This document shows, piece by piece, positions 17,428 to 30,244 of a DNA stretch of 33,083 nucleotides. Position numbers and translations under genes: made by a program. Positions within the stretch are counted from its first letter, which is position 1. Every line of letters starts with the position of its first letter. Source of the stretch: an uncultured Actinomycetota bacterium (GTDB lineage Bacteria > Actinomycetota > Geothermincolia > Geothermincolales > RBG-13-55-18); the NCBI GenBank assembly GCA_964354675.1, contig CAYHAT010000001.1, positions 1-33,083 on the forward strand. The letters are read 5' to 3'. The notes under the pieces were generated by a model, which saw nothing but the letters and a program-made list of their open reading frames with translations, had not been told where the DNA came from and did not search any database.

Positions 17428-17549
17428 GATTGCAATAGAAACAACCATTCGAAAGGGAAGCGAAGATCCGTAGCGCGTGACGTGGTCACCTGAGTTGCGG
17501 GGAGCTAATGGTGAAACCGGCCCGATCGTTCAACACGGTCGGGCTTTTT
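17428..17549 (+). ncRNA. Candidate riboswitch aptamer or small RNA ending in an intrinsic terminator
   Basis: Nested helices: ACCAUU 17444-17449 / AAUGGU 17507-17512; CCGUAGC 17468-17474 / GUUGCGG 17494-17500; GUGAC 17477-17481 / GUCAC 17485-17489. Terminator stem 17520-17528 / 17536-17544 is followed by UUUUU at 17545-17549. Confidence 0.5.
17520..17549 (+). terminator. Rho-independent terminator
   Basis: 9-bp stem GCCCGAUCG / CGGUCGGGC (one G-U pair), 7-nt loop UUCAACA, then a five-U run. Confidence 0.7.
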
Positions 17550-27468: not shown

Positions 27469-27876
27469 TCAATAATGGATCTCCATGGCGCGGGGAGGAC
27501 AGACCTTGATGCACAACTCGCAGGCCACGCATTCCTTGTCGTCGAAACCCACCTCCATGGTGTCGCGCTCCACGTAAAGAGCGGTGGTGGGGCAAACGGC
27601 GAGGCACGCCCCACAGTGTGTGCACTTGGCGTCGTTGCGCCGGATGTCCTGGGACAAGGGCTGGATGGTCACGCCGCAGGACTCGATGTAAGCCATGCCG
27701 TGTTCATAATCCTTTTCCTTCCCCGTGATCTCCAGCACCAATAGCCCCTCCTCGCGCGGGGTGATGGAGGCCTTGAGGATGTTGAAATCCAGGCCGAAGT
27801 CCCGTACCAGCTTGCTCACGATCGGCTTGTCCACCTGCTCGTGGGGGAAATGGAGTACGATCTTGTGCCGCACCAT
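27469..27876 (-). CDS. NIL-domain / 2x[4Fe-4S] ferredoxin protein (partner of the COG1900 homocysteine-synthesis protein)
   Basis: N-terminal NIL-like region (PIVSKLVRDFGLDFNILKASI), then CTHCGACLAVCP and CVACELCIKVCP. The start codon directly abuts the upstream stop (TAGATG). Confidence 0.88.
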   Translation of the reverse strand: MVRHKIVLHFPHEQVDKPIVSKLVRDFGLDFNILKASITPREEGLLVLEITGKEKDYEHGMAYIESCGVTIQPLSQDIRRNDAKCTHCGACLAVCPTTALYVERDTMEVGFDDKECVACELCIKVCPPRAMEIHY

Positions 27877-29052
27877 CTACTCCACCCCCTCTTCCCTCGC
27901 CGCGCAGGGCAGGAGTTCCACCGCTTGGGTCAGGAGGAAGCGGCCTTGCTCTATCCACTCTTTGAGGGCCGCGGCTATCTCCCGGGCACGGCTGTAGCTG
28001 GAGAGCGAGGCGGTCGGTATCTCCTTGCCGTCCAGCTTTATACTACCGCTCTTGAGTTGGGCGTATGTGACCTCGCCCAGTATCTTGCCCGTCCCCTGGG
28101 GATAATCGTTGGAGTAGTCCACAACCGGGGCCACCAGGTCTTCATCCCGCACGGCCGCCGCCTTGACCACGTCCTCGTCCAGGACCGGGATGGGTACTCC
28201 TATGCCGATAGCGAGGCTCGCCCCGTACCCGAGGATAGAATAGCCCGTGAGATAGCGGGGGGTCATCTCCCTCAGGTCCCCGATGACCGACAGGGTCCCG
28301 GCCGGCCGGGTAGGAGACCCTCCGGCGCCGCGGGGGACGTCGGTATTGTGCTGGGTGCCGTACCAGGCCACGTAGCCCACGCCGCCCCCCAGGAAGATAC
28401 GTGTTCCGATGCCGATGGTCCGGAAGAGCGGGTCGTTCAAGAGCGGAGAGAGTTGGCCCGCACTGCAATAGTTTGCGTTCCCAAGGTCGGGCCGGAGCAC
28501 TCCCATATATGTATATATGACCCGGTCCGACAGGTTGACGGCTACGTTGTAGTTCTGGTAGGCGTTGCGCGGGTTGAACAGCCACGCCTCCTTGACGTCG
28601 GCCAGGGTGAGGTCCTTTTCCCAAAGGCGGTTGGGGTAGCAGTCCGTGCCGTAAGATTCGGCCCGCAGGTGCAGCGTCCTCCCCGCCACCAGGTCCTCGA
28701 TGACGTGGCCTCCACCGTAGCGGAACTCGCCCGGGAAGACCTCGTTCAAAGGGTCGTGCTCCGCCATCTCCGTAACCCCGATATAGATGTCCACAGCGGC
28801 TACGCCGCAGTAGACGGGCACGTCATTGAGCCAGGCGCGCGCGATCTTCATGCGCGGCTGGGAGTGTCCCACGTTGATGAAGGCCCCCGAGGAGCACATG
28901 GGGCCGAAAGTGCCGGTGGTGATGACGTCCACTTTGCGTGCCGTCTCGCTGGCGCCCTCCTTATCCACCAGGTCTATGACCTCCTCGGCGGTGACCACAA
29001 CCGCCTCACCCTTCCCTATCCTCTCGTTTATCTCCGCTATGGTCTTGCTCAC
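27877..29052 (-). CDS. Homocysteine biosynthesis protein, COG1900/DUF39 family (aspartate-semialdehyde sulfur-transfer route)
   Basis: GTG start with GGGAGG 8 nt upstream. The sequence matches the family as I remember it (VVTAEEV, TTGTFGPMCSSGAFINVGH, YIGVTE) and is paired with the NIL-ferredoxin gene. Confidence 0.8.
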   Translation of the reverse strand: MSKTIAEINERIGKGEAVVVTAEEVIDLVDKEGASETARKVDVITTGTFGPMCSSGAFINVGHSQPRMKIARAWLNDVPVYCGVAAVDIYIGVTEMAEHDPLNEVFPGEFRYGGGHVIEDLVAGRTLHLRAESYGTDCYPNRLWEKDLTLADVKEAWLFNPRNAYQNYNVAVNLSDRVIYTYMGVLRPDLGNANYCSAGQLSPLLNDPLFRTIGIGTRIFLGGGVGYVAWYGTQHNTDVPRGAGGSPTRPAGTLSVIGDLREMTPRYLTGYSILGYGASLAIGIGVPIPVLDEDVVKAAAVRDEDLVAPVVDYSNDYPQGTGKILGEVTYAQLKSGSIKLDGKEIPTASLSSYSRAREIAAALKEWIEQGRFLLTQAVELLPCAAREEGVE

Positions 29053-29560
29053 TTAATTTACCTCCCTTTTCATCCGATCAACATGTGCCGTAGGGGGAGG
29101 CAGGGCATGACCCATAAGGAGGCCACCACCACCTTCAGATATAACGCTTCGATCTTCTCCATCTGCGTTCTCCCTGACCGTTCTCCATCCCTATCGCACG
29201 CCATGCGACTCGCGGGATAGTCCTTCCTTCCGACTTCTCTCCTCCACCACCGCGGCGGCCCCGGGGATAAGAACACCGCCGGCGAAGGTGCACGGCGGTC
29301 ACAGAACCGTCTCTCCCGCACCGGGTACGGCGCCGCTGCGCGATACCCTCGCCTGTGATCACGGAGGCATCCGTCCTCGCCTACTCGCTCGCGCTTTCAG
29401 CGGGAAGCTCGGGGGCCATCTTCAGCCCGCTTCACGCACCGGTTCTCAACTTCAGCCCGGCTCTCTGTGGCGTTACCAGCGGGCTTAATCCTCCCCTTCA
29501 TCGCCTTTCGCGGTGGATATATCGTTGTCAATAATCCCCAGCATACGGGGGATACGAAAC

Positions 29561-29589
29561 ATGATACTTCCGCGCTATTCCCATGTCAA
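29561..29589 (-). promoter_or_regulatory. Candidate promoter of the homocysteine operon (TTGACA-17 nt-TATCAT)
   Basis: On the minus strand TTGACA is at 29589-29584 and TATCAT at 29566-29561. This implies a roughly 500-nt 5' leader before GTG 29052. Confidence 0.5.
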
Positions 29590-29788
29590 ATAAGCGAATT
29601 GACTCATAAAGAATGTGCTCCAAATGGATTCGTTGCCTCAAAATCAATAAGTACTCGAGGAAAGTCCGGACAATACCGTTCCCCTGGGCAGGATGGCGAA
29701 CGTGCGCAACGCGCTGGCGCAGCGCGTATATAGGGGCATAGGATTCACGAAGCTCTGCGATTACCGCATGGCCCACTTCGCGTGAGCC

Positions 29789-30244
29789 TTATTGGCGGAC
29801 GATGAGGACGGGGCACTTAGCGTGGTGGGCCACCCGGTTGCTCACCGAGCCCAGGAGGAACCCCCCCAGGGCTCCGCGCCCGTGGGATCCCATCACGATC
29901 ATGTCGTAGTCTCCCTCCTCGGCCTCCTGCAATACCTCCGCCGCGGAATTGCCGAAGCGGATCTTGGGCTGCACGTCCAGTCCGGCATCCCTCAGGGGTT
30001 TGGCGCTCTCCGAGAGCATCTCCTCCGCCCGCTTATCCAGTTCCTCCCGCAGCTCCTCGGGCGGCGGCATCAACACCTCGGGGGCGATGAGCCCGTCCGA
30101 CCAGAAGGCGGAGTACACCGGCTCCTCTACCACCGAGAGGAGGGTCACCTTGCACGGGGTATTTTCGAAGAGCCTCGCCGCGAAGGCAATGGCCTTCTCG
30201 GCCGTTTCCGAACCGTCCGTGGGAAGCAGCACCTTTTCCAGCAT
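29789..30244 (-). CDS. Universal stress protein (UspA family)
   Basis: KVLLPTDGSETAEKA and DYDMIVMGSHGRGALGGFLLGSVSNRVAHHAKCPVLIV. ATG 30244 with GGGAGGAG upstream is preferred; the track ORF extends to 30283. Confidence 0.92.
   Translation of the reverse strand: MLEKVLLPTDGSETAEKAIAFAARLFENTPCKVTLLSVVEEPVYSAFWSDGLIAPEVLMPPPEELREELDKRAEEMLSESAKPLRDAGLDVQPKIRFGNSAAEVLQEAEEGDYDMIVMGSHGRGALGGFLLGSVSNRVAHHAKCPVLIVRQ

Follow-up and report, generated by a model that had tools for sequence, protein, structure and literature searches.

The Leader of a Homocysteine Operon

We analyzed a stretch of 33,083 nucleotides (nt) from an uncultured member of the Actinomycetota (GenBank contig CAYHAT010000001.1; "the window" below means this whole stretch) and, within it, the leader of a minus-strand homocysteine gene of the HcyBio family (COG1900). 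The closest named relatives of this gene belong to Candidatus (Ca.) Solincola (83%) and Ca. Geothermincola (73%), in the class Ca. Geothermincolia of the Actinomycetota. The leader is probably a two-stage methionine control region of the homocysteine operon, in which a T-box-type RNA with a putative transcriptional switch is followed by a conserved, very short open reading frame (ORF), here called the mini-ORF, that runs into a helix predicted to sequester the ribosome-binding site of HcyBio. In our labels, G stands for genomes (G000, 86% complete, is that of the window), L for HcyBio loci, and f and g for families and genera; the sister order is family f4. From the promoter to the second gene, the features are:

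29561..29589, minus strand: sigma-70-type promoter (-35 TTGACA at 29589-29584; -10 TATCAT at 29566-29561; 17-nt gap)
29553-29534, minus strand: small 5' hairpin AUCCCC..GGGGAU, conserved, between promoter and Stem I
29533-29524, minus strand: UAUUGACAAC box, conserved, directly 3' of the small 5' hairpin
29343..29510, minus strand: T-box decoding domain (RF00230, 76.4 bits, E 1.2e-16; model positions 1-164 aligned)
29323..29350, minus strand: extra hairpin GGGUAU..GUACCC between pseudoknot and expression platform, with conserved stems and a variable apex
29287..29322, minus strand: antiterminator-like fold, predicted (helix A1', purine bulge and hairpin A2'; no UGGN)
29322-29315 with 29295-29287, minus strand: helix A1', predicted, GGUGCGGG with CCGUGCACC
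29314-29310, minus strand: purine bulge AGAGA within the antiterminator-like fold
29309-29306 with 29299-29296, minus strand: hairpin A2', predicted, CGGU with ACCG
29265..29299, minus strand: intrinsic terminator (hairpin ACCGCCG:CGGCGGU at 29299-29275; U-rich tract GUUCUUAUCC at 29274-29265)
29137..29264, minus strand: purine-rich spacer, unconserved, holding the purine runs
29070..29136, minus strand: mini-ORF with its ribosome-binding site (GAAGGUGG at 29136-29129; stop UGA at 29072-29070)
29059..29102, minus strand: sequestering helix, predicted, anti-Shine-Dalgarno arm UGCCUCCC (29102-29095) with the HcyBio ribosome-binding site GGGAGGUA (29066-29059)
27877-29052, minus strand: HcyBio (COG1900) gene, GTG start at 29052, 391 amino acids, PF01837 with E 1.4e-152
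27469-27876, minus strand: NIL and 4Fe-4S ferredoxin protein downstream of HcyBio (PF09383 and Fer4 families)

Much of what a sequence-only reading of this region had described holds up, namely the promoter, the COG1900 gene opening at GTG 29052, the GC-rich sense strand and a GGGTA...TACCC stem, which turns out to be the conserved hairpin 29350-29323. The promoter matches the consensus at 11 of 12 positions and is the only promoter-like site that a promoter scan finds in 28800-30000; in the leader alignment, TTGACA, 17-18 nt and TAnnnT are retained in nearly all genomes of the class. From its position, transcription would start near 29554. The sense strand is also G-rich: over 29000-29599 the G+C content is 0.53-0.68 and the plus-strand GC skew is -0.15 to -0.38. 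In the same alignment the arms of the small 5' hairpin vary between genera yet remain complementary, and the UUGA(C/A)AA of the UAUUGACAAC box is kept throughout the class, sister order included. The box resembles a second -35 box and has no -10 partner.

A T-Box Decoding Domain with a Methionine Specifier

At its gathering thresholds, Rfam finds nothing in the leader. The T-box was revealed by cmscan in E-value mode, with a score short of the 93-bit gathering threshold of RF00230. Where the sequence-only reading had seen nothing but isolated fragments of a T-box, there is a full decoding domain. Its alignment to the model spans the kink-turn (K-turn), Stem I with the AGAGA bulge and distal loop, the specifier loop, Stem II and the IIA/B pseudoknot. 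The GAUGA of the K-turn starts at 29504 on the minus strand, and Stem I aligns to RF00230 from GCGAUGAAGGGGA through GAA-G-AUG-G-CCCC, which comprises the specifier loop (GAA-G-AUG-G) and the closing CCCC helix. We assign AUG (Met, 29419-29417) as the specifier because it is the codon adjoining the conserved purine in this loop. The pattern GAA-N-AUG-N-CCC recurs in 30 of 30 genomes, the base preceding the codon varying (G or C) and the AUG being invariant. The AG bulge ACAGAGAG and the distal loop GUUGAGAA also align to the model and are invariant, at the level of sequence, in 25 genomes. The S-turn of the specifier loop (29486-29489, minus strand) is AUUA, not the usual AGUA, in the window and in the congeners G001 and G005; other genomes have AGUA.

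Covariation points in the same direction. In an RNAalifold analysis of 22 genomes, 15 of 50 consensus pairs show compensatory double changes, and Stem I, Stem II, the pseudoknot pair, the GGGUAU..GUACCC hairpin and the terminator are all recovered. The pairs of Stem I covary, and the GCCU/AGGC pairs of the IIA/B pseudoknot account for nine double changes between UA and CG. Among the tRNAs of the genome is an elongator tRNA-Met, whose anticodon is CAU and whose discriminator base is A73. The downstream gene fits the pathway, HcyBio making the methionine precursor homocysteine. To judge from its sequence, then, 29510-29265 on the minus strand is a divergent T-box-type leader with a Met specifier, below the Rfam cut-off, and its T-box part would bind tRNA-Met.

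An Expression Platform without UGGN

After the extra hairpin, a GC-rich hairpin with a U tract is present in 25 of 25 genomes of the order. A terminator scan of the leader returned none, probably because this stem-loop does not fit the pattern of the scan; the terminator was identified by comparison instead. Its predicted stability is -16.7 kcal/mol, versus -11.3 for the competing antiterminator-like fold, which consumes the 5' strand of the terminator. If the terminator 3' strand is withheld, the antiterminator-like fold is predicted in every f1 genome (-11 to -19 kcal/mol). Its topology (a helix, a 5' bulge, a hairpin and an overlap with the terminator) matches that of a T-box antiterminator, with a variable purine run as the bulge. 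The leader is thus predicted to contain mutually exclusive antiterminator and terminator folds.

The strands of this putative switch change together. The basal pair of the terminator shows eight compensatory changes in the 22-genome analysis, and in all 19 f1 genomes the 5' strand of A2' repeats the sequence at the tail of the terminator 3' strand, giving strand triplets such as CGGTA/TACCG/CGGTA, CGGCC/GGCCG/CGGCC and AGGCC/GGCCG/CGGCC. Across these 19 genomes the three strands (upstream, terminator 5' and terminator 3', in this order) read T/A/T twelve times and C/G/C three times, the rest being wobble variants. Since such three-way covariation is the signature of a switch between two folds, we take the switch to be under selection.

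The regulatory logic of T-boxes comes from UGGN:NCCA pairing, in which a 7-nt antiterminator bulge beginning with UGGN pairs with the NCCA end of the tRNA (PMC7778990). This defining feature was looked for and, unlike in the T-boxes described so far, is absent from the antiterminator region of the leader, and for that reason we do not file the element as a regular member of the T-box class. The GGU that is homologous to the UGGN bulge pairs in cis with ACC. The sister order keeps the canonical GGGGUGGUACC (AAGUGGGGUGGUACCGCGG), followed by the terminator; the extra hairpin is present there too (f4 genomes), inserted where the Rfam model has no counterpart. In the single f2 genome, G024, an antiterminator can still be drawn with GAG, a UGGUUUC bulge, CACG..CGUG and CUC. 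A likely history, inferred from these sequences, starts with the insertion of a loop that separated the UGGN of the ancestral bulge from its ACC and so allowed GGU and ACC to pair in cis; the first U was later lost in most lineages. The layout is like that of a T-box; the UGGN-less T-box part appears to be new.

A Conserved Mini-ORF and a Predicted Sequestering Helix

Beyond the terminator, the DNA is conserved as far as query position 339 and then again from 466 on. The spacer between is unconserved even within the genus, its length in relatives ranges from about 22 to 310 nt, and it folds no better than shuffled sequences (z -0.57). The purine runs that the sequence-only reading had picked out as notable lie here, at 29264-29137, so that this purine-rich stretch is in fact the least conserved part of the leader.

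The conserved 3' block (29136-29053) consists of AAGGUGGUGGUG, then UAUGG(G/A)UCAUG and then a pyrimidine tract. It contains a putative short ORF with its own ribosome-binding site and start codon, which is predicted to be translated. GUG starts lie at 29132, 29129 and 29126 (18-20 codons); the translation of 29132-29070 in the window is VVVASLWVMPCLPLRHMLIG, followed by the stop. A Trp-Val-Met at 29114-29106 is conserved, with the Met codon at 29108-29106. The earlier statement that the gap has no credible ORF is right for its larger ORFs, which have no Pfam match, but not for the last 85 nt, which hold the conserved mini-ORF (29132/29126-29070).

Among 39 sequences the core follows the pattern (M/L/V)-(L/V/T/I)-(W/C)-(I/V/L/A/G)-M. 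In most lineages its first codon switches between AUG, GUG and UUG; elsewhere an in-frame GUG or AUG is found upstream. Before the Met we find AUC, AUA, AUU, CUC, CUA, CUG and GUC, which are synonymous or conservative substitutions in the chosen frame. In 13 sister pairs, 14 of 32 differences are synonymous in this frame, versus 9 of 32 and 6 of 32 in the others, a modest signal. RNAalifold detects no conserved RNA structure in the mini-ORF core (-0.25 kcal/mol), and the z-score of the single-sequence fold of the last block is unremarkable. The motif occurs once in the window's genome, and the tail of the window's mini-ORF contains one more Met codon, an unconserved one. At locus L011 (genome G013), the entire mini-ORF block, with its ribosome-binding site, WVM core and pyrimidine tract, is present twice as the result of a tandem duplication of ~140 nt, located about 140 nt upstream of the HcyBio start.

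The anti-Shine-Dalgarno arm of the sequestering helix lies inside the mini-ORF. The helix is part of the window's minimum-free-energy fold, and 22 of 23 genomes have an equivalent helix in theirs (median z -2.4 versus shuffled sequences). It begins 3-6 nt past the invariant Met codon and covers the HcyBio ribosome-binding site. Its pairs are lineage-specific and compensatory: CUUUUC:GGAAAG, CCUUCC:GGAAGG, UCCUACCUUCC:GGAGGUAGGA and GUGCCUCC:GGAGGUGC. RNA pairing is therefore a candidate for coupling the position of a ribosome to access to the downstream ribosome-binding site. We propose translational attenuation because the 5' arm of the helix would lie under a ribosome whose A site is occupied by the Met codon.

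Two Independent Modules

Exactly one T-box match per genome is found in 35 of the 51 species genomes of the class, and in the window's genome it is the one described here; not one of the 35 matches reaches the Rfam gathering cut-off. Thirty genomes were examined for its position, and in each of them the T-box precedes HcyBio. An ileS-type T-box, typical of other Actinomycetota, was not detected in the class (at most one T-box match per genome, always that of HcyBio). The possibility, raised in the sequence-only reading, of a leader without conservation in relatives does not hold: across the family the leader DNA is 82-90% identical over 29600-29262 and 29135-29040, the stretch between being unalignable.

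One congener, G003 (98% complete), has an HcyBio gene of 84% identity and no T-box, terminator or spacer (locus L251). About 110 nt separate the stop of the upstream Usp gene from a retained mini-ORF that encodes MAVMLPVWGMPGSSW (..PVWGMPG..) and ends in a stop. This locus is a natural deletion that separates the T-box and mini-ORF modules. In genus g4, HcyBio is kept and the T-box is lost; the mini-ORF core is unrecognizable in both g4 leaders read.

The mini-ORF is also found outside the class. In a comparison set of 79 HcyBio loci from other phyla, three have, 60-85 nt ahead of the start, a mini-ORF of the strict form M-(L)-W-(I/L)-M, and a further five have close variants such as TLWLM, LLWLM, TLCIM, MICIM and MLCIM. 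The hosts are Dehalococcoidia (Chloroflexota), Ca. Omnitrophota and unclassified bacteria. When these eight mini-ORF loci were tested at gathering score, none had a T-box or a riboswitch for S-adenosylmethionine (SAM). Of the eight loci compared that lack a mini-ORF, three have SAM-I (two are labelled Bacillota and one Ammonifex); the SAM-I matches, of 64-88 bits, lie upstream of HcyBio in L058, L079 and L118. At several of the eight mini-ORF loci the segment after the Met codon folds onto the region of the main start. The mini-ORF is a module independent of the T-box, and it belongs to an apparently undescribed family. The modular independence, like the sequence elements themselves, their conservation and their covariation, is a matter of observation.

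In L068, L077, L080, L096, L098 and L112 (Chloroflexota and others), a short, conserved GC hairpin stands right after the Met codon, e.g., GCCC-GAAA-GGGC, which is read C-P-x-G; no hairpin of this form was seen among the mini-ORFs of the window's clade.

The leader stretch is contained in runs of sediment-metagenome DNA. Of the 120 matches from a pattern scan of metagenomes for the leader, only 17 were true leaders. Elsewhere in the window, a cyclic di-GMP-II riboswitch (RF01786) at 17447-17531 on the plus strand scores 57.7 bits, above its gathering score, and is the sole Rfam match in the window at curated thresholds.

Proposed Mechanism and Its Alternatives

These elements can be arranged into two stages. 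In the first (about 29554-29265), the T-box-type RNA would bind tRNA-Met through the AUG specifier in Stem I, and the antiterminator-like fold (29322-29287) would compete with the stronger intrinsic terminator (29299-29265). Because the terminator is the stronger of the two, read-through should need stabilization of the antiterminator, presumably by bound uncharged tRNA-Met. In the second stage (29136-29053), on read-through RNA, the mini-ORF, with its strong initiation signals, would span the 5' arm of the sequestering helix. A ribosome on the mini-ORF would open the helix, most of all while waiting at the Met codon 29108-29106 for scarce Met-tRNA, and the opened helix would permit translation of HcyBio from GUG 29052. 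We infer the tRNA dependence, the sign of the regulation and the stalling at the Met codon, and with them the regulatory logic, from anatomy and covariation only. It is tempting to go one step further and to suppose that the T-box of the Geothermincolales has kept its decoding domain and lost the UGGN bulge, now closed in cis into a GGU:ACC hairpin, that its antiterminator is stabilized without pairing to the tRNA end, and that charge sensing has passed to a ribosome-read M-L-W-I-M leader peptide gained in the same lineage. On the sequences at hand this scenario is possible but rather doubtful.

Several findings weigh against the two-stage reading. On the side of the T-box, there is no UGG anywhere in 29322-29282, nor in the antiterminator region of most f1 genomes, and positions 165-215 of the RF00230 model, which comprise the T-box sequence and the antiterminator, remain unaligned; for these two reasons the charge-sensing step is not visible. 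Helix A1' is no better than shuffled controls in f1 (z about -0.3) and is for this reason a prediction only, and the window's U tract, GUUCUUAUCC, is weak. Four RNA-type libraries yielded, over 29262-29571 and parts of the gene, contigs of relatives only. These contigs stop where the spacer sequences of the relatives diverge, which makes them uninformative on termination, and they do not bear on transcript starts or ends. On the side of the mini-ORF, the excess of third-position changes is not significant (P 0.14), and codon position 1 of the core is more variable than position 3. The conserved core has a single internal Met codon, invariant in 39 valid sequences, whereas classical attenuators have runs. 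Moreover, an out-of-frame AUG at 29115-29113, formed where the codon preceding Trp ends in a near-constant A, is almost invariant, which would be compatible with constraint at the nucleotide level or with a second frame. That second frame, read from AUG 29115, gives MGHALPPPTAHVDRMKREVN and a UAA stop at 29055-29053 that abuts the HcyBio GUG. It has D/G/A/Y and H/N/Y where the chosen frame has I/L/V. We favor the chosen frame because the second one ends at varied places in relatives and its residues are poorly conserved.

Could the conserved last block be part of the T-box itself, that is, a displaced discriminator that controls translation, like those of actinobacterial ileS T-boxes? In that case AAGG would form helix A1, UGGUGGU would be the bulge for the ACCA end of the tRNA, the pyrimidine tract would pair with AAGG or with the ribosome-binding site, and the upstream hairpin with its U tract would be an elaborated Stem III. 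UGGU does match the A73 discriminator of tRNA-Met, and the block is present in the order that has no UGGN before the terminator and absent from the sister order with its canonical GGGGUGGUACC. In G026, Infernal even stretched the T-box alignment across the terminator, placing AAaUaGGGUGGU of the model on AAGGAAGGUGGU and helix A1 on AAGG/CCUU. However, such an alignment was obtained in only one of 25 genomes, RNAalifold finds no helix A2, G019 and G015 read GGUGAUGGC with no UGGU in register, and the distance from decoding domain to block is the unconserved spacer of highly variable length. The block persists in G003 without any T-box and, with ribosome-binding sites of the GGUGAUG or GGAGG type, precedes HcyBio in phyla that have no T-box there; GGUGGUG fits the complement of the extended anti-Shine-Dalgarno sequence at the 16S 3' end. 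The independent occurrence of T-box and mini-ORF disfavors a displaced discriminator, which we consider unlikely. It is similarly improbable that the T-box part has ceased to sense tRNA and survives as an evolutionary remnant, serving as a constitutive partial terminator or a stabilizing 5' structure, the mini-ORF alone being regulatory. The missing UGGN bulge, the AUUA S-turn of the window and two congeners, and the retention of HcyBio without a T-box in G003 and genus g4 would all be explained in this way. But a remnant would hardly preserve a decoding domain with 82-90% identity throughout a family in which the spacer cannot be aligned, with all tRNA-contacting motifs and the AUG specifier invariant and the helices kept paired through compensatory changes, and the three-way covariation of terminator and competitor is expected only if switching is selected.

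Two alternatives remain. The leader, e.g., the GGGUAU hairpin and the UGGN-less platform, might be a new riboswitch for SAM, S-adenosylhomocysteine (SAH), methionine or homocysteine, given that the extra hairpin 29350-29323 and the purine bulge have no assigned role and that neither SAM-I nor SAM-IV is found in the 86%-complete genome. As the sequence-only reading had also concluded for SAM-I and SAM-IV, the leader matches no SAM or SAH aptamer (RF00162, RF00634, RF01057 or relatives), even at E <= 10. We regard a new riboswitch as very unlikely: T-box parts, terminator switch or mini-ORF account for every strongly conserved segment, the extra hairpin also stands beside a fully canonical T-box in the sister order, and no other Rfam family is significant, the best being Guanidine-III (18 bits, E 0.28). 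This match and the sub-threshold ones to a tobacco mosaic virus (TMV) pseudoknot and a small nucleolar RNA are attributed to chance; the first two overlap T-box helices. The earlier suggestion of an unrecognized or divergent sulfur-metabolite sensor survives to the extent that the leader is a methionine-linked regulatory RNA below the Rfam gathering score; it is of the T-box type and joined to a mini-ORF, and no new aptamer is involved. The other earlier suggestion, a decayed protein-coding gene, has in its favor Arg-rich minus-strand ORFs of 75-83 amino acids and is scarcely credible, as the ORFs of the gap (44-88 amino acids) have no Pfam match, its middle is not conserved in congeners, and its conserved parts follow RNA helices with compensatory changes. 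The two-stage control region is thus the reading that we retain.

Comparison with Known Systems

The T-box part is best compared with the Met-specific T-box leaders of methionine genes in Bacillota, e.g., the met leader of metICFE-mdh in Staphylococcus aureus (PMC3771891, PMC7913692). Common to both are the AUG specifier, a terminator/antiterminator platform and genes of the methionine pathway under the control of tRNA-Met, which in our leader is predicted. Our leader differs in its deep-branching actinobacterial host, its HcyBio/NIL-ferredoxin target, which is sulfide-dependent, the presence of Stem II with the IIA/B pseudoknot, the lack of a UGGN bulge, a score below the Rfam gathering cut-off and the mini-ORF module that follows. 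The translational ileS T-boxes of Actinobacteria (Sherwood et al. 2015, via PMC7778990; Mycobacterium tuberculosis ileS, PMC11297988) share with it the phylum Actinomycetota, a single T-box per genome, Stem II with the IIA/B pseudoknot and sequestration of a ribosome-binding site. They have a truncated Stem I, keep UGGN and use the discriminator itself to sequester the ribosome-binding site, whereas here Stem I is of full length, there is an intrinsic terminator, and sequestration is predicted in the separate mini-ORF module. The staphylococcal glyS T-box has a lineage-specific insertion, "stem Sa", in its terminator/antiterminator domain (PMC4574755, PMC9177973), comparable to the lineage-specific extra hairpin inserted in the discriminator/terminator domain of our leader. 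It keeps, however, a 7-nt bulge with UGGA; in our case a loop between GGU and ACC has led to their mutual pairing, the first U being lost in most genomes.

For the second stage there are several partial models. The leaders of M. tuberculosis metE and ppe2 combine a riboswitch with a short translated upstream ORF (uORF) that modulates the downstream gene (PMC11260477). Like ours, they are actinobacterial leaders made up of a riboswitch and a uORF, and metE is a methionine gene. Their riboswitch senses B12 and their uORFs are unrelated in sequence, in contrast to the T-box and the family of uORFs tied to HcyBio across phyla that we describe. In translational attenuation of the ermC/cat type and in the trpL/hisL leader peptides, the position of a ribosome on a short ORF decides the sequestration of sequences downstream. 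With the ermC/cat-type attenuators our leader would share a short ORF that has its own ribosome-binding site and a sequestered ribosome-binding site downstream. Unlike in ermC/cat and trpL/hisL, there is no antibiotic, one internal Met codon takes the place of a run, the core is M-(L/V)-(W/C)-(I/V/L)-M, and translation rather than termination would be controlled. Finally, SAM-I (S-box) riboswitches before Bacillota COG1900 genes occupy the same position in front of the same gene family; here there is no SAM-family aptamer. Our literature search found no link of a T-box with COG1900 or DUF39 and no description of a ribosome-based methionine sensor of the mini-ORF kind.

Implications

The pairing of UGGN with NCCA is regarded as the means by which every T-box reads aminoacylation (PMC7778990). 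A whole order that conserves the decoding domain and a covarying terminator switch without UGGN offers a natural test of other forms of tRNA-driven antitermination. Because the Rfam gathering threshold misses all 35 T-boxes of the class, annotation pipelines will leave these leaders blank. The mini-ORF, tied to an anaerobic homocysteine gene in Actinomycetota, Chloroflexota and Omnitrophota, is a candidate for a ribosome-based methionine sensor. If the UGGN-less reading is true, the leader would combine a novel kind of T-box discriminator with a methionine leader peptide that is undescribed and occurs in several phyla. In uncultured sediment actinobacteria, the supply of methionine appears to be governed at the sulfide-dependent homocysteine step.

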